From a virus (lineage: Duplodnaviria > Caudoviricetes), in the IMG/VR virus record IMGVR_UViG_3300031740_000002, positions 1 through 55,701 of that record: a stretch of 55,701 nucleotides of DNA; one strand, 5' to 3'. Of the stretch, positions 2,287 to 50,807 are shown one piece after another. The first letter of the stretch is position 1. The number at the start of each line of letters is the position of its first letter. The notes below the pieces were generated by a model. It did no database searches. It was given only the letters and a program-made list of their open reading frames with translations, and was not told the DNA's origin. Position numbers and translations under genes: made by a program.

Positions 2287-2823
2287 TTAGATGGCGGTGA
2301 CCTCCGGCTGTGGCGATGGCCCATCCGTTGAAGAGGTGCCATCGTTCCGGGTGGCCGTCGGCTGCTCCGTCGATCCAGTTGGCAAGCTGGATGACGGCGT
2401 CGTAGGGCGCAGGCCGAACTTCTCCAGAAGCAGATACAGCGTCGGCATGACCTCGGTCTGCAGGTCCACCGGGTCATCTTCGTCGTAGAGCCGCTCGCGC
2501 AGGCGCCCCCCTTCGGTGCCGCCGACCATGAGCGCCATGCAGTCAGCCGCAGCCTTCAGGGTGGCCGTCAGATTGCCCTTGGACGATTCGAGCGCCGCGA
2601 GCATTCCCGTCAGACGTTCGATCTTGCCGAAGCCGAGCTTGGCCGGCGCGGTGAACACATTGGCGTCGCCGTCGCCGAGGCGGAACCGGAAGGGTGCCTT
2701 GTTGCGGTTGGTCATGTCGATGACGCCGTCGGCACCGACCATGGGAGTGGGGACGGCCAACCTGCTCAGCACCTCATCGAGAGGCATTTCAGCCGACAGG
2801 TCCGCGGGGGAGGCTTGTGTCAT
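2287..2823 (-). CDS. Tail assembly chaperone
   Basis: Position before tape measure; LLEKFGLRPT motif; TAGACT 6 nt before the ATG (leaderless-type). Confidence 0.75.
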   Translation of the reverse strand: MTQASPADLSAEMPLDEVLSRLAVPTPMVGADGVIDMTNRNKAPFRFRLGDGDANVFTAPAKLGFGKIERLTGMLAALESSKGNLTATLKAAADCMALMVGGTEGGRLRERLYDEDDPVDLQTEVMPTLYLLLEKFGLRPTTPSSSLPTGSTEQPTATRNDGTSSTDGPSPQPEVTAI

Positions 2824-2880
2824 GCAGGCAGTCTAGATCGTTGTCACCTGTCGCCCATAGTGCACCGCCTGACATGTCAC

Positions 2881-3117
2881 TTAGTCACGGGAAACCGGAT
2901 AACCGCCGCGGTTGACCCGAATAGCCGGGATGGCCCACGGCTCTTCCCAGACGTCGATTTCGCCAACGGCCATCATCTCGGCCAGCCAGTCGAGATCCTC
3001 AGCGGTCAGACCGGCGGGCCACACCTGCGGCATGACACCCGTCCTAATCGTGACGAAGTCCCAGGCCGCCGAGCTGGGCGCGCACCAACCACCGCTCGCA
3101 CTGATAACGCTGTCCAT
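2881..3117 (-). CDS. Small protein resembling the N-terminal segment of the mature major capsid protein
   Basis: ISASGGWCAPSSAAWDF and IPAIRVNRGGYPVS match capsid MVAAGGWCAPSQIRYDF and LPTFGVERGGINFPVS; promoter GTGACA-18-TATCGT-7-ATG. Confidence 0.7.
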   Translation of the reverse strand: MDSVISASGGWCAPSSAAWDFVTIRTGVMPQVWPAGLTAEDLDWLAEMMAVGEIDVWEEPWAIPAIRVNRGGYPVSRD

Positions 3118-3137
3118 GTCAGTCACGATAACGCGTC

Positions 3138-3158
3138 ACCACTTGACATGTCACTCAG
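3138..3158. promoter_or_regulatory. TGAC-N2-GTCA motif copy
   Basis: ACCACTTGACATGTCACTCAG; a weaker copy has its core at 2870-2879. Confidence 0.75.
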
Positions 3159-3589
3159 TCTCGCGCCGCAGGTAGCGCGTTGCGTAGGAACGGGTTGGCG
3201 ACCATACCCTGGACACGGCGCGCGTAGACGTAGCGGCCGCGGTGGTGCGGCCGGAAGCGCAGGAACTTGCGACTGCGCGGAGTGATCCAGCGATGGCGCG
3301 GCCCGTGCAGACCGGTGCCGTCGTGCACGTAGCGCGCGTAGACGACATTCGAGCCGATGATGCAGACCGGCAGCCCACGGCGCATCACGATCTGCGTCGT
3401 GATCGAGGCACGCAGGCGCCCGGTGTCGACGCGCTTGGGCCCTCCCACGCCGCCCAGGTTGCGCTTGGCCTGCGTCTCGACCTTCAGGCCGCGTCGTAGC
3501 AGATCCTGGGCCAGCGGGCCGCGTGAGCTGTTGATGAGGGCGCGCAGAGCCTGCGGGTTGAGCCGGTGGGTGACCACGACGCGCGCCAT
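3155..3589 (-). CDS. HK97 gp10-like tail completion/neck protein
   Basis: VDTGRLRASI, GSNVVYARYVHDGT and NPFLRNAL motifs; basic. Confidence 0.85.
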   Translation of the reverse strand: MARVVVTHRLNPQALRALINSSRGPLAQDLLRRGLKVETQAKRNLGGVGGPKRVDTGRLRASITTQIVMRRGLPVCIIGSNVVYARYVHDGTGLHGPRHRWITPRSRKFLRFRPHHRGRYVYARRVQGMVANPFLRNALPAARD

Positions 3590-6791: not shown

Positions 6792-8684
6792 TTACGGGCA
6801 GCAGGACGTCAGGTCGGCTGCGCCGGTGGTGCCGTCCGGGCAGACGTTCATCGTGTACTCGCGCACCTCGTGACCGAACCGGGCGATGAGGTGGCACTCC
6901 TCGAGCCACGCCGCGGTGAAGTCGTTGGTCTCATTCAGCGTCGAGTCACGCACCACGCCGAGGTTGAGCGCCATGCCGTTGCCGCGGGCCACGGTGCCGG
7001 CCGCGTACATGAGGCCCTTCAGAGTCGACGGATACTGGGTGATCGCGGTGGCCGCGCCGGGCTGGCCGGACGCGCGGACCTGATAATCCTGCACGAACTG
7101 CACGCGGATGCCGCGCACGTCGAACCAGCGCGCGATCTCCGAGTTCGGCACGGCCATGAAGTCGGACACGCCGGTGCGCTTGGCCAGGTCGGCACGGACC
7201 AGGCCGAGCGACCATTCCGGCAGCACCCACTCGATCACGTCCGTGTCGCACATGCCGAACTTGGCCCGGTAGTCGATCGCGGACAGCTCGGCGGTGTTGA
7301 GCACCGGAGCCGCCGCGCCGGTGCCGGTGGCCGAACATCCGGCGACCGCGGTGGACAGGTTGGCGATGCTCGCGATGTAGCGGGCGTTGCTGGCGTGGTA
7401 GTGCGCGGACATGAGCAGGCGCAGGAAGTTGCGGGTCGACTCGGGCCATGCGTTGTCGGCCAGGTTGCCAGCAGTCATGCAGATGCCGTAGCACTCCAGG
7501 CGCACGTCGCTCATGGTCGAGCAGGGCACCCGGATGCACGGCTTCGTCGGCGAACCGGTGGCGGCCAGGATGTCCGAATGCTCGGTCCACAGCCACGGCA
7601 CGGTGGCGTTGCTGAACGCCGTGTACCAGGGCAGTGCCGGACTGAACGTGTCGGCCAGGCTCGGGCTGACCGGGAAGTTGATGCCGCCGCGCTCCACGCC
7701 GAAGGTCGGCAGGTCGATCATGCCGCACTCGCCGGCGATGTTGAAGAAGTCGTAGCGGATCTGGCTCGGTGCACACCAGCCGCCCGCGGCCACCATCGTC
7801 TCGAAGGCGGAGCCGCTGGCCTTCGAGCGCAACCCCTCGATGTAGGCGTCCACCGCGTCACGCGGAGTCGTCTCATTGAAGCGGTTGGCGCCGAAGTCGT
7901 GCGCGATCGAGGCGACCTGCACGCCGCCGTAGGGCTTCTGGTGGTCGGCATCCCCGCGCAGGCGGTGGTAGGCCGCGGCACCGTCGCGGACCTGGCGACG
8001 ACTGAAGCCGTTCTGGTCGGCCATGTTGCGGGCGCGGTCCTCGACCAGATCGGTGAGCTGACGCATCTGGGAGATGCGGCCACCCATCTCGACCTGTCCG
8101 GGAAGGCCCACGCTTGCGGTCAGTGCGAGCGGCGCGGCGCCTGGATCGCTGGACAGCGCGGGCTGTGCGGTGCGCATGCTCGACAGCGACGGGTTGAGGC
8201 TGCGCCTGGGGCCGCCCACGCCGCCGGTGTCGCGCGAGCCGGTCTGGGCGCCGCCGGTCGGGCGCGCCGATGATGCGGCGATGGCCTGCGGTGTGGGCGC
8301 CGCCACGGCGGGCTGGGCAGGCTCGGCGCCGCCCGGCACAGCGTCAGCCGCGTTGCCGTCGTCGCCGGTCGTGTCGCCTTCGTCGCCTGGCTCGGTGGCC
8401 TCGGGCGGGCGCACGTCGTTGATGAGCGCCTCGAATTCGGCGTCCGTCTCGGCGATCTCGTCGGCGATCGCCTTCTCACGGCCCTTGATCGCCTTGATGG
8501 CCTTCCCGAGCCGCTGCGCCTCGGGCAGGTTCTCCGGCGTGCGGTTCTCCAGAACCACGTCCAGTTCGGCGTCGGCCTGGGTCCGCAGCTCGGCCAGCTG
8601 TTCGACGGTCAGACTCGTCAGATCAGCGGGAAGTTGGAAGGGGGCGCCCGCGTCGCCAGCGCCGCCCGTGGTGGTCTTCGGCAT
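6792..8684 (-). CDS. Major capsid (hexamer) protein with N-terminal scaffold-like region
   Basis: Acidic coiled-coil N-terminus, then AAGGWCAPS..YDF, KPCIRVPC, AGNL..WPE and RDSTLN..ND motifs; start reassigned to MPKTT. Confidence 0.9.
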   Translation of the reverse strand: MPKTTTGGAGDAGAPFQLPADLTSLTVEQLAELRTQADAELDVVLENRTPENLPEAQRLGKAIKAIKGREKAIADEIAETDAEFEALINDVRPPEATEPGDEGDTTGDDGNAADAVPGGAEPAQPAVAAPTPQAIAASSARPTGGAQTGSRDTGGVGGPRRSLNPSLSSMRTAQPALSSDPGAAPLALTASVGLPGQVEMGGRISQMRQLTDLVEDRARNMADQNGFSRRQVRDGAAAYHRLRGDADHQKPYGGVQVASIAHDFGANRFNETTPRDAVDAYIEGLRSKASGSAFETMVAAGGWCAPSQIRYDFFNIAGECGMIDLPTFGVERGGINFPVSPSLADTFSPALPWYTAFSNATVPWLWTEHSDILAATGSPTKPCIRVPCSTMSDVRLECYGICMTAGNLADNAWPESTRNFLRLLMSAHYHASNARYIASIANLSTAVAGCSATGTGAAAPVLNTAELSAIDYRAKFGMCDTDVIEWVLPEWSLGLVRADLAKRTGVSDFMAVPNSEIARWFDVRGIRVQFVQDYQVRASGQPGAATAITQYPSTLKGLMYAAGTVARGNGMALNLGVVRDSTLNETNDFTAAWLEECHLIARFGHEVREYTMNVCPDGTTGAADLTSCCP

Positions 8685-11082: not shown

Positions 11083-11853
11083 CTAGCGCGGCTCGCCGGC
11101 CATGCGCATTATGCAGATCTCGCCGGGCAGGTGCGCCTCCGGCGAACCGCATCTGATGCAGCCGTCTGACGGCTCGCGCAGGTCGTACTCAAAAAGGGTC
11201 GGCGACGGGGCGCAGAAGCCGCCCGCCGCGGTAGCGACGTCATCCACCGGCAACTCGTCAAGCTCTGGCGTTGCCCCTGCGTCCGACTCGGGCTCTGCAT
11301 CCGGCTCCGGCGCGGTATCGGACTGGACCGGCATGCCCAGCGGGATATCGGTGACTTCGCCAGCAAAGGCGAAGCGGAGCCGGTCGAAACGCACCGGCCC
11401 GACGCGCTGCGCCACGCTGGCGAACTGTTCGGGGACAGCCACGGACGCCTCGGCCTGGCCGACGTAGGCGAGCGTGATGTGCGGGATGAAGGGCTCGTGT
11501 TGCTCAGGCCACGCCACCAGATCAGCGCAGCCGGCCTGGACGTCGGCATGCACCTCGGCGATCTCCGGACTGTTCAGGATCAACGCCACACACGGCTCGT
11601 CACCGACCGGGTTGACCAGCGCCGCGGCGAAGGCTTCGCCCTCGACAGCCTCCCACGCTGCGGCGTACTCACGCCCCCAGGCGACCAGTGCGGCCCGTTC
11701 GTCCGACTCGATAGCCTCGCCGTCGCCGAGGTACAGCAGCGTCAGGTGCAGATCGCCGACAAGTTCGGCGCCTTCGTCGCCCAGCGCCAGGAAGTCGGCA
11801 GAGTCGGAGTCAGGGAGCAGTGCGATCATCGCTCCGGTGTGTTCGTCGGCCAT
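11083..11853 (-). CDS. 2H phosphoesterase (2'-5' RNA ligase-like)
   Basis: Two HxT motifs (LHLTL, PHITL); acidic linker, then GGFCAPS and CxxC at the C-terminus. Confidence 0.85.
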   Translation of the reverse strand: MADEHTGAMIALLPDSDSADFLALGDEGAELVGDLHLTLLYLGDGEAIESDERAALVAWGREYAAAWEAVEGEAFAAALVNPVGDEPCVALILNSPEIAEVHADVQAGCADLVAWPEQHEPFIPHITLAYVGQAEASVAVPEQFASVAQRVGPVRFDRLRFAFAGEVTDIPLGMPVQSDTAPEPDAEPESDAGATPELDELPVDDVATAAGGFCAPSPTLFEYDLREPSDGCIRCGSPEAHLPGEICIMRMAGEPR

Positions 11854-12083
11854 CAACCGCTCCGGATCTTCGTCACGTCTGCCTGATATGCCTTACGGCG
11901 CAGATGTGCAGCCAGATGGCGACGCGCCATCTTCTCGGCACGCCTGCGCCCACCGAGTACGAATCGAGAATCGTATTCAAACATGCCCTCATGCACAGTA
12001 AGCAGATAGGACCAGCGCCCGGTGCGCGCAACCGTGACGTATGGGTCAAGGTACCCGTCGTCGGCCATGAAAGCGTCAGTCAC
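11853..12083 (-). CDS. Hypothetical protein
   Basis: Start and stop overlap both neighbours. Confidence 0.55.
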   Translation of the reverse strand: MTDAFMADDGYLDPYVTVARTGRWSYLLTVHEGMFEYDSRFVLGGRRRAEKMARRHLAAHLRRKAYQADVTKIRSG

Positions 12084-39486: not shown

Positions 39487-40079
39487 TGCAGGCCACGCAC
39501 CGCCTACCCGCCAGTCTGGGCTCGCTGCCCTGCGAGATCATCGGCGAGCCGTTTCCAGGCTGGATGCGCGTCAAGCTGGTCGACGAGTCGAGGCAGGTGC
39601 TGGACGTGATGCGCACGGATCTCATCTCGGCGCTCCCGCCCGAGCCGGCAGACACGATGGTGGTGCTGGTCGTGCCGTACAACGGCGAGCCGGCCTACCC
39701 CGCGCAGCGCCAGGACAACGACCCGCAGAGCCACGACGAATACCACTGGTACAGCTCGGGCAGCGACGACGTGAACAGTTGGGCCGAGGTGCTGCGGATC
39801 GGCCCGGCCATCCCGATGGTGCCTCAGTCCGAGGTCGCGTTGCCGTGGACCGGCACTGCGACCGGACTCAAAATCAAGGTCTACGCCAGCCTTACTCAGG
39901 TGCAACTCACGACGGATAGGCCGATCGGCCTCGGCCTCCCCTTCACTCACGCCGAGGCGAGCGAAGTGGCCCAGGCGCTGACCAGTGCTGCAGCGAAGCT
40001 GCGCAGCACCCTGAACGCCGTTGCCGCCGCGACGGTCCGATCCGTCACGACTGACCTGCGCGCGAGCATCAGCCCATGA
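39487..40079 (+). CDS. Hypothetical protein
   Basis: GGGAG RBS before MQATH; ATGA coupling downstream. Confidence 0.55.
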
Positions 40080-40396
40080 TCACCGTTGCGGACATGCAGC
40101 GCGAAACAGGGTTGACCTATCGTCAACTCGATCACTGGACACGCCGCGGCTGGCTGACGCCGGACAATGCTCACGCCGGCACCGGCACGTCCAGGCTCTG
40201 GAACCGCTCGGACCTGCTGGTTGGCCGACTGATGGCGCACCTGGGGGCGGCCGGCTTCGCCCCCGACATCGCCTATGACCATGCGCTGCGCCTGCTCGCT
40301 GCGCCGACGCGGCCAGCCCAGATCGAGTTGGCGCCGGGCCATCTCGGCGCCCAGGCGCACAAGCTGACTCTCGCGCTGCACTGGCCGCCGTCATGA
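40076..40396 (+). CDS. MerR-like HTH protein
   Basis: TGLTYRQLDHWTRRGWL..G.GTSRLW. Confidence 0.8.
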   Translation: MITVADMQRETGLTYRQLDHWTRRGWLTPDNAHAGTGTSRLWNRSDLLVGRLMAHLGAAGFAPDIAYDHALRLLAAPTRPAQIELAPGHLGAQAHKLTLALHWPPS

Positions 40397-40587: not shown

Positions 40588-40913
40588 GCGCCGCGGTGCT
40601 GCTGATCCTGACCGTGAGCCACCTCGCCGCGGCGCTCGCCGGTGGCTGGCTGGCCGCCGGCTACGTACGCGCCGGGCAACGCCAGCTCGAAGCCGAAGCA
40701 GAACTGCTGGATCTGCGTCGTCGCTTCGGTCCGCGTCCGCCGACGGTGACCGGCCGCGTGGTCATGCCACTGCCGAGCGTGGCGGGCATGACGGTGGCGC
40801 AGGCGCAGGTAAGCCTGGCGCTGCGTCGCGCACGCCACGCGGAGCGCAGTCTCGCCTTCCAGGCGTTGATGTGGAAGGCCAAGCACCGCGCCCCGGCGTA
40901 CGGCTCGCGCTAG
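40584..40913 (+). CDS. Membrane protein
   Basis: N-terminal TM segment; ATGA coupled. Confidence 0.55.
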   Translation: MSAAVLLILTVSHLAAALAGGWLAAGYVRAGQRQLEAEAELLDLRRRFGPRPPTVTGRVVMPLPSVAGMTVAQAQVSLALRRARHAERSLAFQALMWKAKHRAPAYGSR

Positions 40914-41143
40914 TCGTTGGCCTTCCAGGCCAACCCGCGCTCGATGCGGCGCACCACCTCACGCGTCACGCCGAGCAGCGCGGCCACCTCACCCTGCCCT
41001 GTGCCCGCGGCGCGCGCCGCGATGATGACCGGCACGAGCTCGCGGCGCAGCGCGGCCAGGTCGCTCTCCAGTTGTCGGTACCGGGCGGCCATGAATCGGA
41101 GCCGGTCCACTTCCGTCAGGGCGCGGCGCGTGTTCGTCGTCAT
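40910..41143 (-). CDS. Small HTH DNA-binding protein
   Basis: QGEVAALLGVTREVVRRI; TTGACA-18-CATAGT-7-ATG. Confidence 0.75.
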   Translation of the reverse strand: MTTNTRRALTEVDRLRFMAARYRQLESDLAALRRELVPVIIAARAAGTGQGEVAALLGVTREVVRRIERGLAWKAND

Positions 41144-41228
41144 GCCTACGACTATGGCCCACAAGCTATGCCTATGTCAAATGCCCATTCGGTGGGCATG
41201 ACTGACCGAAAGTATGACCCGTTCAGGC

Positions 41229-41257
41229 TTGACACGCCTACACTCTAGGCATACACT
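41229..41257 (+). promoter_or_regulatory. Sigma70-type promoter
   Basis: TTGACA-17-TACACT in an AT-richer segment carrying GCCTA/TAGGC repeats. Confidence 0.7.
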
Positions 41258-41480
41258 TAAGGCATAACTACAGAGGAACCTCCCACACCAAGGGGACCGA
41301 AGGGCGCCGGAAGCGCCTCGCGGGAACCGGGCCGGGATCGCAGGGGAACCCGAACAGGGCAGGCAAGAGCGACCGGGAGACGTGACCAAAGGGATCAGCC
41401 ACTCACCAAATGCAACGACATGCACAACCGCCCTGGCGCAGCGCGACACCGCATCTGCGACCGCAGCAGCCCAGGGGCAC

Positions 41481-41564
41481 GGACCGCGGGCCCGCAACGA
41501 CGGCAGCCTGAACGAACACCGAGGCGTAAGGCCTCGTGGCCAGGTTCGACTCCTGGCAGGTCCA
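41481..41564 (+). tRNA. tRNA-like element (non-canonical)
   Basis: T-arm CCAGG-TTCGACT-CCTGG; stem CGAGG-N7-CCTCG; GGACC/GGTCC acceptor; oversize D region and no U33. Confidence 0.45.
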
Positions 41565-41605
41565 CTCCCGCCGCCATCCGGGCGGCCAGTCGGAGGGAGA
41601 CCGAC

Positions 41606-41743
41606 ATGGCAAGACAGCGACGTTACTACCACCGGCCGGAATGGCCCGCTGGTCTCCGGCTCTTCATCGGCGACCAGTGGACGCGGTGGCTGTTGCAGTA
41701 CCGGCTGAACTGCCGGGGCTACGTCGTCCGGGGCGTCCGGTAG
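41606..41743 (+). CDS. 45-aa basic protein
   Basis: GGAGGGAG RBS before MARQRRYY. Confidence 0.45.
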   Translation: MARQRRYYHRPEWPAGLRLFIGDQWTRWLLQYRLNCRGYVVRGVR

Positions 41744-42231
41744 CCAAGCCGGCCGGGAGGGTGCGAGGCCCTCCCGCCCACGAAGGACCGGGACCTCCTA
41801 TGGCCCCAGCGGTTACGAACCCGGTCCGCACCAAGCACCCCAGGAGCCCGATCTGTAAACCGGGGGGCGACCTATGGCCGGGCCTGCTGACGCTAGCGGG
41901 GGCGGTTACGTCGCCCCGGTCCGGGACCTGGGAAGCCCATCCCGAGGGACCCGTCCATCCAGGGCGAACTGAGGGGTACGGGTACGCAGGCCGCGACCAC
42001 CATGACGGGCGCGGTATCGGTCGCGAGTCGCGGCCCAGTAACGGCCGGAGCGATCCCGGCCCCTCCCCGCGTCGAGCGCCCACCGTGCGCGCTCCGCGAA
42101 CCCCTGACGGGACCGCCATGAAAGTGGCCGAGGTCCGAAACCACCATGTGTGGCTGCCCGCTCGGGCGCCCGTGGTCGCGCCGGTGAGTACCGGCGCCTG
42201 ACGAGAGTCAGGGATGCCTGAGGAGGCACCC

Positions 42232-42834
42232 ATGAGCATCAACCGCGTAACTGCGGCAAAGGTCGGAGCGTACGGAATCGCCACCGTCGCGGCAGTCGCC
42301 AGCTTCGGCCACCAGATCCACCTCCTCGAAGGGGCGGATCTGCCCCCACTGTTCGGTGTCGTGCCGTCCGAGTGGGTAACTCCTCTGACCGTTGACCTCC
42401 TGGCGATGGTCGCACTGGCGGTGCGTACCTCGGACACGGTCACCGAGGCAACCCGTAGGGCTGCCTTGATCCCGCTGGTTCTGGCTGGCGGGCTGAGCAT
42501 CGCGGCTAACGTCGCGGAGGCTCGAAACCCCATCCAGGTCGTCGTAGGCGTCTGGACGGTGGCGGCGTACATCCTGGCCGAGCTGTTCGTCCAGAAGATG
42601 GAGCGCAAGGCGGCGCCGGCCGCCAAGGCTGCGACCCGGTCCCGCCGCTGGGTTGTTACGCAGTCGGAGCAGGCAGCGCGCAAGCGTGCCGGCTACGACA
42701 AGCTGGACCGCGCGGCGAAAGCTGAGTGGACCAGGCAGTACCGCGAGCGGGTCTCGAAGCGGACCCCCACGTCGCCCGGCCGGCCGCCGGTGCACGCGCC
42801 TTCCGCCGAGGAGGTTGAGCAGCTCGCAGCGTGA
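42232..42834 (+). CDS. DUF2637-like membrane protein
   Basis: GAGGAGG RBS; ASFGH, PLTVD and SIAANV motifs; about 4 TM, basic tail. Confidence 0.75.
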   Translation: MSINRVTAAKVGAYGIATVAAVASFGHQIHLLEGADLPPLFGVVPSEWVTPLTVDLLAMVALAVRTSDTVTEATRRAALIPLVLAGGLSIAANVAEARNPIQVVVGVWTVAAYILAELFVQKMERKAAPAAKAATRSRRWVVTQSEQAARKRAGYDKLDRAAKAEWTRQYRERVSKRTPTSPGRPPVHAPSAEEVEQLAA

Positions 42835-42878
42835 TCGGACCGTGCTGAGCGGTCCGGTTAGGCGCTCGGCACAATGAG

Positions 42879-42928
42879 AAGGGCGATACCCCCGGTTCTA
42901 ACCGGTCGGGGGTATCGCCCTTTTTTAT
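42879..42928 (+). terminator. Rho-independent terminator
   Basis: AAGGGCGATACCCCC...GGGGGTATCGCCCTT followed by a T-tract. Confidence 0.9.
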
Positions 42929-43004: not shown

Positions 43005-43349
43005 GTGCATACCGTCAACATCCTGCAGGTGCTGCCTCGCCGGGCGCTGTTCGCGCCCCGCTTCACCCGCACCGACGCCGAGCGACTCGCCGACGTCCTG
43101 AAGGCCCTGGCCGACCCGGCACGGCTGCAGATCGTCGCAGTGCTCTACGCCGCGCCGGAGCACGAGATGGCCGTCTCCCACGTCACGGCAGCCCTGGGCA
43201 CGCTCAAGCAGCCGACCGTGACGCATCACCTGCACATCCTCACCGAGGTCGGGCTGCTGGAGTACCGCAAGCAGGGTGTCTGGACGATGTTCAAACTGGT
43301 GCCCGACGCCATCGCCGCGGTCACCGCCTGCCTGGCGCCACCCGCCTAG
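43005..43349 (+). CDS. ArsR/SmtB family regulator
   Basis: LKALADPARLQI, QPTVTHHL..L..GLL..RKQG. Confidence 0.9.
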   Translation: MHTVNILQVLPRRALFAPRFTRTDAERLADVLKALADPARLQIVAVLYAAPEHEMAVSHVTAALGTLKQPTVTHHLHILTEVGLLEYRKQGVWTMFKLVPDAIAAVTACLAPPA

Positions 43350-45050: not shown

Positions 45051-46163
45051 TCAGCGACGTAGGTACGATGCCGTCCTGATCTTAACCTGTCGCTGGATCT
45101 TCACCGCGTCCGTCCAAGCCTCGATCCACCGCCAGGCGTTGCCCTCGACCGTGTAGTCCGCCGCGGCCTGCCGGCCGGCCTGCGTCTGCTCGGCGCGCAG
45201 GTCGTCGTCGTCGAGCAGAGTCTTGGCGCGCTGGTACCACTGCCGCGGGTTGTTGGCCAGGAACCCGACGCCGGTCGTCCGCGCCAGCTCCGCGTATTCG
45301 GCGCGCGGGGAGGCCACCCAGGGCACTCCGCAGGCCATCGCCTCCAGCGGCTTGAGCCACGACTTGGCTGTGTTGAAAACGGTGTCGGCCAGCGGCGCCA
45401 GGACGACACCCATGTTGGCGACCTTGCGCGGATAGTCGTCGAAGTCGGTATTGCCGGCGGTGTCCAGGTCGTCCTCATCAACGGTCATGCCGAAGGCCCG
45501 GTGAAGCATGCCGTCGCCGGGCGCATAACCGTAGTTCGGCCCGACGCCCCAGTACTTGTAGCCCTCCCGGATCAGCCTGGCCACGGCCGCCCCGAGCACC
45601 GGCAGATCGCTCGGGTGCGAGTGGATCGAGCCGGGCCAGCCGAAGGTCGCCCGGTCCACATGCTCGATACCCAGGTAGCCGCGCGGGACGGTGTTGCGCA
45701 CCACTACGCCGCGCCCATGCGGTGCGTAGGTCTTGAGCAGCGCCGGCGTGGAGACGGTAACCATGGTGGCGTCCAGACAGGCCTGGACAGCGTTCTCCCA
45801 GTTGTGCTGCACCACGCCCATGTCTTTGCGCATCGCGACCCAGGCCGGATTGGACGGGTCGATGCGGGCAAGATCGTCGTCCATGTCGACGATGACGGCC
45901 ACCCCCTGATCGCGCAGCAGGGGAATGCCCGAGGCCAGGTTGAGCATCGAGACACGCTGCAACACGATCGCCTCGGCGTCGGGCGGCACGAAGGCCGATA
46001 CGGCGCGGTTGGTGCGTAGGTCGATGTCCCCGCCGATGCCCTGCCGCGAACCGGGCATGACAATCTTGACGTCGTGGCCCTGCGCCGCGGCGGCCGCGGC
46101 CGGCCAGATCATCCGGTAGTGCCCGCAGCCGTACTTGTCGGCGGGGTAGACATAGATCGTCAC
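45051..46163 (-). CDS. Glycosyltransferase, GT-B type
   Basis: GCGHYR, DMDD, APLADTVFNTAKSWLKPLE, GVPWVAS. Confidence 0.88.
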   Translation of the reverse strand: MTIYVYPADKYGCGHYRMIWPAAAAAAQGHDVKIVMPGSRQGIGGDIDLRTNRAVSAFVPPDAEAIVLQRVSMLNLASGIPLLRDQGVAVIVDMDDDLARIDPSNPAWVAMRKDMGVVQHNWENAVQACLDATMVTVSTPALLKTYAPHGRGVVVRNTVPRGYLGIEHVDRATFGWPGSIHSHPSDLPVLGAAVARLIREGYKYWGVGPNYGYAPGDGMLHRAFGMTVDEDDLDTAGNTDFDDYPRKVANMGVVLAPLADTVFNTAKSWLKPLEAMACGVPWVASPRAEYAELARTTGVGFLANNPRQWYQRAKTLLDDDDLRAEQTQAGRQAAADYTVEGNAWRWIEAWTDAVKIQRQVKIRTASYLRR

Positions 46164-46294
46164 GAGCTACCGGCCCGGCGCTTCAGAGCTGCTCTCCGTC
46201 GCTGCGCGGGTCTGAGAATCAGGTAGTAGGCGGTGAGGACGCCGGCCATGAGGCCAGCGAATCCCCCACCGAGCACCGCGAGCGCGTATTTCAT
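46160..46294 (-). CDS. 44-aa single-TM protein
   Basis: ATGA and GTGA overlaps with both flanking GT genes; translated by hand. Confidence 0.6.
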   Translation of the reverse strand: MKYALAVLGGGFAGLMAGVLTAYYLILRPAQRRRAALKRRAGSS

Positions 46295-46995
46295 GGTGTA
46301 GCCCTAGCCGTACTCGCGGCCTGGGCGATGAGGTGCTGGGCGTCCGGCGCGTCGTCGCCGCGGTCCGGCATGCCCGAGGTGTTGCCCGGCTTGCTGGTGC
46401 CGGGTAGCTGGTGGTGCGTCCAGAGCCAGGTCTTGCGTACGAGATGGCCGACCCTGGCGCCGGCCTTGACGCACTCCAGGGTGAAGTAGCGATCGTCGCC
46501 GGCATTCTCGCTGTGACCGCGGTCGAGGTTGACGAAGCCGACCTGTTGGGCCAACTCGGTGCGGACCAGGGTGGTGATCGTCGTTTCGATCGGATTCTCC
46601 GGATCGAACGGGTCGAGGTAGTGGCTCATCGGGAAGATCGGGTCATCGTCGAGTACGCGGGTCGTGCCGTTGCCGAGCTGTTGTACGACCTTGAACCACG
46701 AATAGACGTAGTCGACCTGCCTGTCGAGGGCGTACTTGAGTAGCAGTTCCAGGTGTCGCGGCAGGAACGCGTCGTCCGAGTCGAGGAAGGCCACCCAGTC
46801 CGTACGCGCCTGCATCAGCGCGTGCTGGCGGGTCGGAGCGCTGCCCTGCTTGTCGATGTCGATGGCGATGCAGATCGCGTCGGGCAGCAGGGTCTGGGCG
46901 TAGACGGAGCGGTGCGCGCGTTCCAGCATCCCCGAGGTGATGCGGGCCGGATGTGCTGGCGTGACCACCGAGATGGTCTGTCGAGGCTTCGGCAT
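46291..46995 (-). CDS. Glycosyltransferase family 2
   Basis: ISVVTP, SVYAQT, WVAFLDSDD. Confidence 0.88.
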   Translation of the reverse strand: MPKPRQTISVVTPAHPARITSGMLERAHRSVYAQTLLPDAICIAIDIDKQGSAPTRQHALMQARTDWVAFLDSDDAFLPRHLELLLKYALDRQVDYVYSWFKVVQQLGNGTTRVLDDDPIFPMSHYLDPFDPENPIETTITTLVRTELAQQVGFVNLDRGHSENAGDDRYFTLECVKAGARVGHLVRKTWLWTHHQLPGTSKPGNTSGMPDRGDDAPDAQHLIAQAASTARATP

Positions 46996-47035
46996 GTCCA
47001 GAGGCTACGTGACAAGCTGGTGACGGATCAAGCGG

Positions 47036-47815
47036 TCATGAGCCGTGCGCGCGCAGCTCCCACCATTTCGACCAGGGCAGGTCGTAGTTGATGCGTAGCG
47101 GCTTGAGCATGGCGCCGTTGCCGTTGGTCGCCCACGGCTCGGCTGCTGCGTGCATCAGCACGGGCAGGCTGACCTGATCCTGGTGCGACCACGTCAGGTT
47201 GTGATGCCACCACTCAGCACCCAGGGCGAACGTGGCCACGCTGTGGCGGCGTACGCAGTGCCCGGTGGCCATGAGGCCCCAATGCTCCGGATGCTTCCAC
47301 TCGTCGCGGTAGTGGGCGACCTGACGCAGCAGGGCGGCGCGGTCGTAGCGCGGCAAAGTCGAGGAGTACACACCTTCGTCCAGCGCGCAGTCACGCCACG
47401 GGTGGCGCACCATGGACCAGTCGTCCCCGCCCAGAGCGTCGAGGTTGCGCTTGACGAACTGGCCGACCGTGACGCTCATGTTGGCGTCGAGCCAGATGCT
47501 GGCGACGTCGTAGCGCGCGGAGTGCCGCACGCCGGCGAAGTAGGCGGCCATGTTCGGGTGGCACTTCCACCACTTGTGTCTAAGCATCGGCAGCGTGATG
47601 AGCGGGTCACCGTTGGCAGGGTTGGGCTGGATGTGATCGTCAGGCTCGGCCAGGATGACCTGCCAGCCGCGGCCAACCTGCAGATCGACGTCATCGGTGA
47701 ACACGAAGGCCGGCGCATCGATGTCGCCGGGCAGGTCGGTCACCCGCGCCTCGTAGCCGCCGTAGACGGCGGTGTAGATCATGACCTTCTCGATGGGCAG
47801 CGCCGGCCACTTCAT
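47036..47815 (-). CDS. DUF616-like glycosyltransferase
   Basis: YTAVYGGY, FTD, SIWLDAN, HPWRDC, DQVSLP. Confidence 0.8.
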   Translation of the reverse strand: MKWPALPIEKVMIYTAVYGGYEARVTDLPGDIDAPAFVFTDDVDLQVGRGWQVILAEPDDHIQPNPANGDPLITLPMLRHKWWKCHPNMAAYFAGVRHSARYDVASIWLDANMSVTVGQFVKRNLDALGGDDWSMVRHPWRDCALDEGVYSSTLPRYDRAALLRQVAHYRDEWKHPEHWGLMATGHCVRRHSVATFALGAEWWHHNLTWSHQDQVSLPVLMHAAAEPWATNGNGAMLKPLRINYDLPWSKWWELRAHGS

Positions 47816-48678
47816 CCCAGAGCCAACGACTCGTAGGACCGGGCAGCCTCGGCGATCAGGCCGGCGTCAAACTGTGGGCGCCAGCCCAGCAGCGCCCAGC
47901 CCTCGCCGTCGGCGCAGACGGTGGACTCGACCTCGCCGTCGCGCATCGGCAGATAGTCGATGTCGGGCTGGAACCAACCGGTCGCCTTCGCCACCAGATG
48001 GGCCACGTGGAGCACGCTCACGGCCTGACCTGTGCCGCCGTCGAAAACCAGATTGGCCCTCGCGCCGGCCTTGACGTTGTCCGGCGTTATCCAACCGCGG
48101 GCGTGCGGGATCGCGTCGATGAGCATGCGCGCGATGTCGTCGACATGGATCATGTCGACGGTCTGGTAGCCGGTGCCCCAGATCGGCAGCGGCTGACGGC
48201 GCCAGGCGTGCACGGCGAAGGTCGGCAGGATCTTCTGGGGATGCCCGACGCCGAAGCGCTGGCCCGGACCGTAGGCGTTGAAGGCGCGTACGTGGGCCAT
48301 CCGCAGCCCGCGCGAGTGGTGCAGCGCGTCGGCCAGCCGCTTGGCCGCGATCTTCGTCGCGGTGTAGATCGACGGGAACACGTCGGGCATCAGGATGCCG
48401 ATGTAGACCGCGTCGTTTCGCACGCACCACTGCATGACGTTGAGCGCGCCCAGGACGTTGACCTCGACGGCCTTCATTGCGTCGTCGAACAGTTCGGCCG
48501 TACCGAGCACGCCGGCCAGATGGATGACGGCGTCGGCGCCCTTCAGACCGGACAGATCGCCCATGATGTTGCCGCCGGTGTCGCGGTCCACCGACCAGGC
48601 GGTGTGTCCGCGGGCCTGCGCCGCGGCGATGGTGGCCGCACCGATGAAGCCCGCGCCGCCCGTGACTGCGATATGCAT
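47812..48678 (-). CDS. NAD-dependent epimerase/dehydratase
   Basis: TGGAGFIG, HLAG, YTATK, NAYGPGQ. Confidence 0.92.
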   Translation of the reverse strand: MHIAVTGGAGFIGAATIAAAQARGHTAWSVDRDTGGNIMGDLSGLKGADAVIHLAGVLGTAELFDDAMKAVEVNVLGALNVMQWCVRNDAVYIGILMPDVFPSIYTATKIAAKRLADALHHSRGLRMAHVRAFNAYGPGQRFGVGHPQKILPTFAVHAWRRQPLPIWGTGYQTVDMIHVDDIARMLIDAIPHARGWITPDNVKAGARANLVFDGGTGQAVSVLHVAHLVAKATGWFQPDIDYLPMRDGEVESTVCADGEGWALLGWRPQFDAGLIAEAARSYESLALG

Positions 48679-48687
48679 GCCCGCTCC

Positions 48688-49347
48688 CTACTTGCCGGCG
48701 ATGTAGTCGAGGAATGACTCAGCGCTGTGGACCCTCAGTGCGCCGCCGCGTGTGATCACATCATCGGGCACCCGTGTGACCGTCGTCCACCTCTCGATGA
48801 TCTCTGCGACCGACACCGGCGTGTCGAAGATCCAGCCGCCGGTCGGCGAAAAGCCTGTGACGACGAGCAGGCCGGTAGCGGACGCGTCGACCAGCATGCA
48901 GTCGAGATCAGGCCGGTGCTCGGCCAGAATGTAGATCAGTTTCCAGACGTCGCCGGTCCAGTCGCCGGGCGGCTGCACGCGCTCGGCGATGGCCTGGCCG
49001 TAGGGCAGCACGTCATCGAAGACAACCACGGTATCGGGGTGCGACTGCATTTCGATGTGGATGAAGTCCCACAGCGCATCCTCGAAAAGGTGCGACCCGT
49101 CGATGAACGCCAGATCGATCTTCGGTCGCTCGCACTGGACGCAGTCGAAGTAATCGACACCGTAGAGCTTCTGGTTGGGGCGGGCGTTGCGGGAGTCGAA
49201 CCAGCGCAGGTCGGGCTCTACCCCGATGGCCATCCCCGCCTTCTCGGCGAGCGCCAGGGATGCACCGGTCTGGACTCCGACCTCGAGATAGACCTCCGGG
49301 CGCAGAATGGCGTGCAGTTCGGCCAGGACCTGGTGACGCGTCAGCAT
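48688..49347 (-). CDS. Class I SAM methyltransferase (Methyltransf_24-like)
   Basis: YLEVGV..G, FIDGSH, FDD, WTGDVWK. Confidence 0.88.
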   Translation of the reverse strand: MLTRHQVLAELHAILRPEVYLEVGVQTGASLALAEKAGMAIGVEPDLRWFDSRNARPNQKLYGVDYFDCVQCERPKIDLAFIDGSHLFEDALWDFIHIEMQSHPDTVVVFDDVLPYGQAIAERVQPPGDWTGDVWKLIYILAEHRPDLDCMLVDASATGLLVVTGFSPTGGWIFDTPVSVAEIIERWTTVTRVPDDVITRGGALRVHSAESFLDYIAGK

Positions 49348-49390
49348 GTTGTCACTATGTCAGGTGGCGCGCCGACGCGCCAGATCCGGC

Positions 49391-50110
49391 TCACCACGGC
49401 GCCGGCTGCACCCACTTCTCCTCGAAGGCGAGGCGGTCCAGGCCGCACCGCGCGCCCAGCTCAGGCTTGACCGCGGTCCAATGGTCCGGCTCGCGGTTGG
49501 GTACGGTATGCGTGCCTACCAGCACCATGCCGCCGTGCTGGCGTGCCTGCCAGTCGATGTCGGTGTCCCCCCACCACCACTGGAAGCGCTCATCCGGCAG
49601 GACCGGCGAGCGACCGTCCAGGATGAACGCCCAGCCCGGCATGCGCCCCATGAGGTCACGGTCAGGCGTGGTCTTGATCCTGGGAGGGCCACCGAACGGC
49701 CAGGGCGACGTGGCGCCGGCCACCGCGCCAGTCGACACCATGGCCTCGACCACGACGTCGAACCAGCCCGGCGGTGGTGGCGCGTCGTCGCACAGGAAGG
49801 CCACCCAGAACGGCGGAAGCACGTCAGCAACTACGGGTTCCCGGATCGCCTTCAGACGGTTGGCCTCCGACCAGTCCGGCAGGCACCTGGCCATCCCGGC
49901 ACGCCACAGCTCGGACAGGTTGGGCGGCTGGGTGAGCACACGCAGCACGACCGCTTTCCGGTCGCCAGCCGGCAGCGCGTCCAGGCGCACGGCTGGATCC
50001 GAGGCGTTGTCGATGACCACGACCATGTCCACCTGTGGCCCGATCGCGGCCACCGTCTCGGCCAGCAGTGCCGGCCGGTTGTGCGTCAGGATCACTGCGA
50101 ATCGGTGCAC
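49391..50110 (-). CDS. Glycosyltransferase family 2-like
   Basis: ILTHNRP, VVIDNAS, FLCDD, WWGDTD. Confidence 0.82.
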   Translation of the reverse strand: MHRFAVILTHNRPALLAETVAAIGPQVDMVVVIDNASDPAVRLDALPAGDRKAVVLRVLTQPPNLSELWRAGMARCLPDWSEANRLKAIREPVVADVLPPFWVAFLCDDAPPPPGWFDVVVEAMVSTGAVAGATSPWPFGGPPRIKTTPDRDLMGRMPGWAFILDGRSPVLPDERFQWWWGDTDIDWQARQHGGMVLVGTHTVPNREPDHWTAVKPELGARCGLDRLAFEEKWVQPAPW

Positions 50111-50117
50111 CGCGCCC

Positions 50118-50807
50118 TCAGATCTGTACTGCGTTGGTGTAGCGGGATGCCGGTCCGACGTAGCGGACCTCCATGTAACGGATGCGGGTGGCGTTGGCGT
50201 TACTGACCACGGTGCCGGTGCTGGCCGCAAGAGTGCAGACGATCGCGCTGACGACCTCGACGGCGGTCGCGTTGCGTACGATGATCCTATCCAGAGTCGT
50301 AGTGCCCTGGCCTGCCGTGAGGTGGTTCTGGTTGGCCGTCACGTCGGACAGGTCGGTACCGACCAGGGTGCCCTTTCGCACGCGGCGCTGGGCGGTGTTG
50401 CTGGCTACGCTGCCGGTGATGGCCGGGTGGAAGACGATCACCTCGTAGGCGCACCCGGCCTGCCAGCGGATCGAGTTGCTGGTGAGCGCGACGGCCTCGG
50501 CGCCGATCGCCGCGGTCGCGGTGACCGAACTGACGTAGTCGACGAGCTCGCCAGAGGCGGGCTGGACGGAACCGACGATGAAGTTCGCAGCCGGAGGAAC
50601 CTTGTCGACGTAGACGCGCTGATTGGTGAGCAGTGGTCCGATCATCGGCACGGCGTTGACCGGCACGCTGTCGCCGTCGATGGTCACGGTGGGGGCGTTC
50701 GGGTCCTCCACGGTGGCCAGGACACGCTCCCAGGTCAGCCCGAGCCGGCGCGCGTTGTCGACAATGGCGCGGGCTATGTCGATCGATCGCTGGTCAGGAT
50801 GGGTCAT
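50118..50807 (-). CDS. Minor tail protein
   Basis: Coupled to tail genes; beta-rich. Confidence 0.6.
   Translation of the reverse strand: MTHPDQRSIDIARAIVDNARRLGLTWERVLATVEDPNAPTVTIDGDSVPVNAVPMIGPLLTNQRVYVDKVPPAANFIVGSVQPASGELVDYVSSVTATAAIGAEAVALTSNSIRWQAGCAYEVIVFHPAITGSVASNTAQRRVRKGTLVGTDLSDVTANQNHLTAGQGTTTLDRIIVRNATAVEVVSAIVCTLAASTGTVVSNANATRIRYMEVRYVGPASRYTNAVQI

Follow-up and report, generated by a model that had tools for sequence, protein, structure and literature searches.

Cis-acting RNA hairpins are found soon after the early promoter and a small first gene in lambda (nut) and HK022 (put). The put element consists of two stem-loops, and in a lambda-type nut boxA is accompanied by a small boxB hairpin to which an N-family protein binds. 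The RNase III signals of T7 early mRNA form a group of several related hairpins of about two helical turns, and ANTAR target hairpins are small, with hexanucleotide loops. The polycistronic early precursor of T7 is described as carrying five processing signals, and internal loops as directing single-strand cleavage (PMC3867540). ANTAR targets are described as two tandem hairpins with variable stems that are recognized by protein (PMC3369931, PMC8934654). Here we describe two neighbouring hairpin-forming units, unit 1 (41785–41827) and unit 2 (41864–41917), in the IMG/VR virus record IMGVR_UViG_3300031740_000002. The whole linear entry of 55,701 bases (~75% complete according to CheckV; 68% GC) was analyzed and is called the window below. 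An earlier note on this DNA had proposed a repeated RNA motif in which a conserved core is enclosed by unrelated stems.

Both units contain the same four blocks in the same order on the plus strand. Direct sequence reading located ACCGGG (block 1) at 41787–41792 in copy 1 and at 41859–41864 in copy 2. Two 9-mer cores, detected as direct repeats and by pattern count, follow: CCTATGGCC (block 2; 41797–41805 and 41871–41879) and GCGGTTACG (block 3; 41809–41817 and 41902–41910). The direct and inverted repeat search added CCCGGTCCG (block 4; 41820–41828 and 41915–41923). In unit 1, the blocks are separated by a first junction (J1, ACCT), an apex (CCA) and a second junction (J2, AA). In unit 2, J1 is GGGCGA, J2 is TCGC, and a 22-nt apical block (41880–41901) stands in place of CCA. 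Sequence reading and pattern count confirmed what the earlier note had said of the cores, namely that each occurs twice, in two hairpins, with core-to-core inserts of 3 and 22 nt. Each unit is closed by a perfect 8-bp inverted repeat on the plus strand, GGACCGGG/CCCGGTCC in unit 1 (41785–41792/41820–41827) and GGGGCGAC/GTCGCCCC in unit 2 (41864–41871/41910–41917), and in unit 2 the first C and the last G of the cores fall inside this stem. The 36-nt linker between the units (41828–41863, plus strand) was predicted to be unstructured (−2.6 kcal/mol, z +1.3). Directly beyond unit 2, GGTCCGGGACCT (41918–41929) matches the start of unit 1, GGACCGGGACCT (41785–41796), at 11 of 12 positions, overlapping the end of the second copy of block 4.

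The four collinear blocks are identical at 33/33 positions without a single substitution, while the three intervening blocks have been wholly replaced or inserted. Since ACCGGG and CCCGGTCCG are shared and collinear in the flanks of the cores, the closing stems are not unrelated, and the arrangement points to tandem duplication rather than to a core placed in exchanged helices. The two units are paralogues that arose by local tandem duplication of one hairpin-forming segment. No other exact copy of either core was found across the 55.7-kb record. The two-core pattern occurs twice in the window, and none of 100 shuffles held two or more matches. We also used a word-free test, which looked for adjacent pairs of perfect 8-bp hairpins with two 7-mers in common, in the same order, in their loops. 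Units 1 and 2 were the only case in the window, and at least one case appeared in 2/200 dinucleotide shuffles. The same test on six kin records (325,554 bases) gave nothing comparable, only three overlapping pairs, all inside one GCC-rich low-complexity coding repeat of a single record (G002). The feature is real and non-random, and it is a duplication at a single locus.

Both units were predicted to fold as hairpins on the plus strand. Unit 1 (41785–41827) has a closing helix P1, GGACCGGG/CCCGGUCC, of 8 bp, an internal loop ACCUCCUA/CGAA, an inner helix P2, UGGCC/GGUUA, of 5 bp with two G·U pairs, and the loop CCAGC. Unit 2 (41864–41917) has a closing helix GGGGCGAC/GUCGCCCC of 8 bp, a loop CUA/C, a P2 of 6 bp (UGGCCG/CGGUUA, two G·U pairs), a GG/GG internal loop, a 7-bp extension (CCUGCUG/UAGCGGG, two G·U pairs) and the loop ACGC. 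The predicted pairs total 13 in unit 1 and 21 (8 + 6 + 7) in unit 2, the latter in three stacked helices broken by small loops. When each unit was folded alone, both gave a closing helix, a loop and the common inner helix UGGCC/GGUUA. Unit 1 reached −19.3 kcal/mol (z −1.8), with 8/200 shuffles as good, and unit 2 reached −34.4 kcal/mol (z −3.4), with 0/200 shuffles as stable. The minus strand of unit 2 gave −27.9 kcal/mol, 6.5 kcal/mol worse than the plus strand. Two G·U pairs of the inner helix and a further two of the unit 2 extension make the fold strand-specific and favour the plus, that is, the transcribed strand. In a fold of a 497-nt leader (41744–42240), pair probabilities in unit 1 were 0.83–0.97 for P1 and 0.56–0.62 for P2, and those in unit 2 were 0.78–0.94. 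A long-range alternative pairing 41785–41792 with 41915–41922 had a probability of at most 0.03 in this fold. Both plus-strand hairpins are thus predicted to be stable within the whole leader.

Comparison of the two folds showed how the closing helices are related. Unit 2 keeps a homologue of the unit 1 closing helix, ACCGGG(G) at 41859–41865 with (C)CCCGGU at 41914–41920, which forms 7 pairs. Its second stem, GGGGCGAC/GTCGCCCC, uses the same G-run and C-run in a shifted register and gains 4 pairs, CGAC/GUCG, in which the outermost bases of the cores take part along with the replaced junctions. In unit 2, 11 pairs with a sliding GG bulge form in either register. The J1 and J2 replacements (GGGCGA and TCGC) pair with each other, and the apical 22-nt block is self-complementary (7 bp) and lengthens the hairpin, so that all three replacements keep or extend pairing. 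There was no compensatory change at any homologous pair, hence no evidence of covariation. The idea of a repeated RNA motif stands insofar as both units fold as plus-strand hairpins with the same inner helix and high pair probabilities in the leader. The proposed signature of exchanged helices fails, as the helices are largely homologous, the internal loop differs and compensatory changes are lacking.

We then considered where the hairpins lie. A divergent promoter pair was predicted upstream, with TTGACA-18-CATAGT on the minus strand for a helix-turn-helix (HTH) gene and TTGACA-17-TACACT on the plus strand (41229–41257, 10/12); the promoter scan returned 2 sites, versus 0.2 expected in shuffles. 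The plus-strand promoter-like sequence, from which a transcript with the hairpins would start, is followed by a leader of ~340 nt that is A-rich and T-poor (AT skew 0.45–0.73 over 41250–41549). Next comes an open reading frame (ORF) of 45 aa with an Arg-rich N-terminus (41606–41743, plus strand), preceded at 6 nt by the ribosome-binding site (RBS) GGAGGGAG and showing a third-position GC of 0.82–0.93. Its product had no family match and no homologue among proteins of 24–79 aa. A stable GC hairpin without a U tract (41751–41779, plus strand; −22.3 kcal/mol, z −2.65) begins 8 nt past the stop of this small ORF and was not called a terminator. Beyond unit 2, a further ~315 nt of GC-rich non-coding sequence precedes a gene at 42232–42834 (plus strand) with the RBS GAGGAGG and a borderline DUF2637 match (22.3 bits; cut-off, 22.8). 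A canonical intrinsic terminator with a 20-bp stem and a T run (42878–42923, plus strand) ends the rightward unit.

The 488 nt between the two genes (41744–42231, plus strand) read as an untranslated intercistronic leader, with no codon-position GC bias (~0.7 at all three positions), unlike the neighbouring genes, which show strong third-position GC bias. Two long ORFs, 41536–42201 (plus) and 41664–42683 (minus), likewise lack such a bias, and our reading places the cores of unit 1 and those of unit 2 in different frames; a coding interpretation was rejected. HTH-type genes surround the region, namely a MerR-like ORF (40076–40396), an HTH ORF (40910–41143) and an ArsR-like ORF (43005–43349). 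The hairpins therefore lie in the untranslated intercistronic part of a rightward transcript beside a presumed immunity switch.

Other elements of the locus were recorded as well. For the HTH gene, ATG 41143 (minus strand) is the most likely start codon; it lies 7 nt beyond the −10 of the promoter predicted on that strand, and the mRNA would be leaderless. Half-sites of the GCCTAC/TAGGCAT type, including a palindrome at 41237–41251, surround both divergent promoters (41140–41270) and look operator-like. Between the promoters and the units, 230 nt upstream of the latter, 41520–41568 (plus strand) resembles the 3' half of a tRNA: a hairpin CGAGGCGTAAGGCCTCG is followed by a perfect T-arm consensus, CCAGG-TTCGACT-CCTGG, and then by CAGGTCCA. 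Neither ARAGORN nor Rfam made a call there, and the T-arm-like 25-mer was found in 0/401 sampled Actinomycetes-class genomes at up to two mismatches. An attP arm of a tRNA-integrating phage was considered for this stretch and rejected, given that its 25-mer is missing from those genomes and that no integrase match was found in the ~75% complete record. Within the 488-nt leader, which as a whole was predicted to be a chain of hairpins, further perfect complementarities of 8–9 bp join 41992–42012 with 42166–42180 and 41989–41997 with 42027–42035, and a direct repeat matches at 12 of 14 positions (CCGCGACCACCATG/CCGAAACCACCATG). A Hammerhead_II match at 42133–42213 (plus strand) scored 23.6 bits (cut-off, 37), with E 0.039 in a 1.1-kb search. 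The stretch contains CUGACGA, CGAAAC and GUC, but stem II would be nearly unpaired on reading (G-C, A·C, G·U, U·G, C-G). The core word is part of a CCUGAC-GAGA-GUCAGG hairpin directly ahead of the RBS. We judged this to be probably a chance match outside the family.

The gene set of the record, which includes a terminase, a Mu-F-like head protein, a Prim-Pol, helicases, an endolysin, a holin and glycosyltransferases, is like that of tailed actinophages, and we regard the virus as a tailed, actinophage-like virus of soil origin. Among named phages, the closest terminase is that of Saccharomonospora phage PIS 136 (47% identity); those of Gordonia phages come next at ~40%. Ten IMG/VR contigs carry terminases 51–68% identical to that of the record and made up the set of kin. 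All ten records were used for BLAST, the six records mentioned above for the paired-hairpin test, and ~486 kb of kin and related viral loci for descriptor searches. Elsewhere in the genome, three glycosyltransferase-type ORFs, an ORF of the NAD-dependent epimerase/dehydratase type and a methyltransferase form a sugar-modification block adjoining the lysis genes (45051–50230, minus strand). The ORF at 11083–11856 (minus strand) matches LigT/2'-5' RNA ligase-superfamily phosphoesterases. Enzymes of this type are linked to RNA end repair, and this ORF has no evident connection to the hairpins.

Searches for relatives of the pair were made in several collections. Rfam 15 gave no match in the whole window at the gathering threshold. 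At E values up to 10 (41300–42400), nothing fell on the plus strand of the units, and the only overlaps were on the minus strand, DUF3800-XI (13.9 bits; cut-off, 37.8) and MEG3_2 (15.6 bits; cut-off, 60). In the named-phage collection, 41500–42250 had no blastn match and the DUF2637-like protein no tblastn match. BLAST of 41200–42240 against the ten kin records returned nothing usable, the best being a 20-nt match with E 0.0075. A descriptor combining the cores, with mismatches allowed, and a closing helix of at least 6 bp yielded background only in six kin genomes and other loci (~486 kb). The earlier note had counted the absence of the motif elsewhere as one half of what would speak against its proposal, and absence is what we found in everything searchable, kin phages included.

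Pattern scans of larger collections produced candidates that were rejected on inspection. Seven IMG/VR stretches held both cores, none with a convincing closing helix by eye; four are evidently or apparently coding, an identical sequence from two records accounts for two, and another is a tRNA-Cys. A relaxed tandem pattern gave 25 IMG/VR stretches, and in 0/25 was the second TATGGCC followed by a further GGTTAC at no more than 60 nt. The 3'-half pattern, the second core with CCCGGTCC, gave 5 stretches, a number that fits chance, and one of these (L216) lies in a coding frame. Another of the five is in an unrelated viral contig (L217; 68% GC) and is a non-coding hairpin at 7155–7200, ACGGACCG...CGGTCCGT, that encloses GCGGTTACG and lies 45–85 nt downstream of the stop codon of a tyrosine integrase gene; it adjoins a stretch that, read on the minus strand, resembles a tRNA 3' end. 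As only 11–12-mers are common to it and the window and there is no wider similarity, we judged it to be probably a chance match. In metagenome contigs, which were scanned with the tandem pattern only, the single stretch found was read as a Pro/Gly/Gln-rich coding repeat. GTDB held no stretch with the tandem pattern and at least 120 with the single-unit pattern. Eighty of these loci were read; they came from scattered phyla, none was tandem, and a flanking helix of at least 8 pairs (G·U allowed) was present in 3/80 (L116, L121 and L128). In the sample of 401 Actinomycetes-class genomes there were 2 matches, both coding, one of them in the centre genome, which had been selected on the strength of that match; a control with the reversed pattern likewise yielded 2. 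Among the sequencing runs listed, no RNA run contained the sequence. A single DNA run did and is probably where the record comes from; the contig in that run is identical, without variants. In the literature, no account of such an element was found among listings, the beginnings of abstracts and passages of one paper.

How the units compare with the described systems can now be stated. They share with the RNase III signals of T7 (PMC3867540) that they are related, loop-interrupted hairpins in the untranslated spacer of a polycistronic phage transcript. Unit 2 in particular, with 21 predicted pairs in three stacked helices and small loops, falls in the size class of RNase III substrates (~20 bp with internal loops), and its spacer is non-coding and lies between two cistrons. 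Unlike the T7 signals, the units exist in two copies only, in one spacer, and unit 1 is short (13 pairs); similarity in sequence to those signals would not be expected. Like nut and put, they are hairpins that follow a promoter and a small first ORF. They differ from these in standing 36 nt apart, in having no Rfam match and no N-like family among the genes found, and in that no terminator is predicted before 42878. ANTAR targets are likewise tandem hairpins, but loops of 5 nt (CCAGC) and 4 nt (ACGC) on interrupted stems of 13 and 21 pairs do not agree with the definition of those targets, and no ANTAR protein was present among the ORFs scanned. Like intrinsic terminators, including the U-tract-poor ones of actinobacteria, the units are GC-rich stable stem-loops directly after a gene. 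However, no T run follows either unit (CGCACC and GGTCCG follow), conserved internal blocks are not a feature of terminators, and the terminator scan called none at 41751–41930, though it called 42878–42923 in the same transcript. A dispersed repeat of the REP or MITE kind was also rejected, the exact cores being restricted to one locus and missing from ~486 kb of related viral loci. The defining features tested were thus either lacking or generic, and we claim membership in no named family.

The explanation we find most plausible, and put forward tentatively by analogy, is that the units are RNA hairpins acting in cis within an intercistronic leader, as sites of processing, stabilization or protein binding. 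The two paralogous units, which arose by duplication of a single hairpin segment, would lie in the RNA that joins the 45-aa ORF to the DUF2637-like gene, and the rightward transcript would belong to the early or immunity region of the actinophage-like virus. We read the hairpins as plus-strand RNA because of the G·U pairs and because the promoter, the flanking ORFs and the terminator are all on this strand; they would be transcribed and act in cis as RNA structures. They would most likely serve a double-strand-specific factor as sites of recognition, of processing or of stability control, and the RNase III signals of T7 early mRNA are the model. Processing or stabilization at these sites would uncouple the small ORF from the downstream gene or tune the expression of the latter. 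The identical blocks would be the parts contacted by protein, and the replaced blocks would represent tolerated variation.

Several observations weigh against this explanation. Perfect 8-bp hairpins are common in DNA of 68% GC, with 191 in the window versus 91 per shuffle. The whole leader gave z −1.9, with 7/100 shuffles as good, and its minus strand was similar (z −1.6). Internal-loop geometry differs between the units, being 8 + 4 nt in unit 1 and 3 + 1 nt plus the GG bulge in unit 2. When a covariance model was made from unit 1 by itself, unit 2 received no more than 11 bits (E 3.1, rank 14 of 56), so this model was too weak for searching. No second occurrence was found in any collection searched, and hence there is no comparative support. 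Two syntenic kin lack the motif in the equivalent leader: G006, whose DUF2637-like protein is 67% identical, and G003, with an endolysin 80% and a DUF2637-like protein 41% identical. In G003, as read on the minus strand (2801–3560), an equally long untranslated leader before the DUF2637-like gene has its own repeats, CTGACCTGCGCA three times and GTGTCCTAGTT twice, near an AT-richer promoter-like stretch.

The main rival is a functionless relic, a duplication by slippage or recombination in a non-coding spacer whose ancestor happened to be a palindromic GC-rich hairpin, such as a weak terminator-like stem. Two copies at one locus, their absence from kin phages and from all collections searched, stems that are homologous instead of swapped, an internal loop that is not conserved, and a marginal leader on both strands in DNA rich in hairpins all agree with that origin, and the identical blocks would then simply be young. 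Neutral decay, however, should scatter substitutions, yet all block positions are identical where three blocks were replaced outright. Moreover, each replacement preserves or extends pairing, through the 7-bp self-pairing insert and CGAC/GUCG, and Tandem Repeats Finder reported no simple tandem array. We regard a relic as somewhat unlikely. That two unrelated hairpins came together purely by coincidence is hardly credible. When many windows are scanned, a p of ~0.01 per window will produce a hit somewhere; here, four ordered identical blocks place 33 nt within 140 nt, and the duplication is directly visible.

Function at the level of DNA is improbable. The 9-mers and the clustered GGACCGGG/CCCGGTCC words might bind an HTH regulator, a recombinase as arm-type sites or a translocase- or partition-type protein, or the units might form hairpins in single-stranded DNA. 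The flanking HTH regulators and the tRNA 3'-half-like element upstream fit such a role, as does the clustering of GGACCGGG, which occurs 9 times in the window versus 5.4 expected, 3 of the 9 lying within 140 nt at the units. On the other hand, the core spacing differs (3 versus 22 nt) in a way not usual in bipartite DNA sites, the helix made by the additional 19 nt matters only to a single strand, G·U pairs are weak in DNA, and the operator-like promoter repeats are a different word. No PF00589 or PF07508 match, that is, no integrase or serine recombinase, was found in the ~75% complete record, and the absence of the T-arm-like 25-mer from the 401 genomes also disfavours this role. Descent from tRNA was suggested by the tRNA-Cys among the seven IMG/VR matches, which shares 10 + 13 nt with unit 2, by the closing helix of 7–8 bp and by the T-arm consensus hairpin at 41540–41556. 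The units would then be tRNA-derived remnants or mimics, with cores from tRNA positions 4–12 and from the 3' anticodon stem with the variable loop. ARAGORN found no tRNA in the window, and relaxed thresholds produced only overlapping low-score calls on both strands; no Rfam tRNA match appeared even at E 10, and the units lack a cloverleaf and a T arm. The best local alignment score of the units to 33 tRNAs (26) was reached by 5/60 random 171-nt windows of the record, which places the similarity within background. None of the 80 GTDB loci was tRNA-like by eye (ARAGORN was not applied to them), and the two coding matches in the 401 genomes, equal to the control, show that the cores are no feature of the sampled actinobacterial tRNAs. 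We reject tRNA descent, which is very unlikely and close to refuted. An antitermination or peptide platform, in which a nut- or put-like cis RNA modifies RNA polymerase or is bound by the Arg-rich 45-aa peptide so that transcription reaches the DUF2637-like gene, is distinctly unlikely. The order of promoter, small ORF, stable hairpin without a U tract, paired hairpins and next gene fits it, as does the Arg-rich start of the peptide. The upstream leader is A+C-rich and T-poor, a composition that suits Rho loading. Against it, the peptide has no homologue, kin phages have no similar element, no terminator is predicted between the hairpins and the gene, and the hairpins are unlike the small boxB-type or ANTAR-type loops. 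In its strongest form, to which we give only a slight chance, the pair would represent a novel type of cis-regulatory RNA in phages, a platform of two hairpins whose identical inner blocks are the contact surfaces. Bound by the orphan Arg-rich peptide or acting directly on RNA polymerase, it would govern either read-through into the membrane-protein gene downstream or the translation of that gene in an actinophage immunity or early region, resembling N/nut or put with no sequence relation to known ones.

The main value of this locus is cautionary. A conserved core with different closing stems, when seen in two adjacent copies, can result from tandem duplication followed by block replacement, and it does not amount to covariation. 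If the hairpins are functional, they would provide a first handle on post-transcriptional control in a little-known group of soil actinophages, specifically in the early or immunity region, whether that control works through processing, stability or antitermination.

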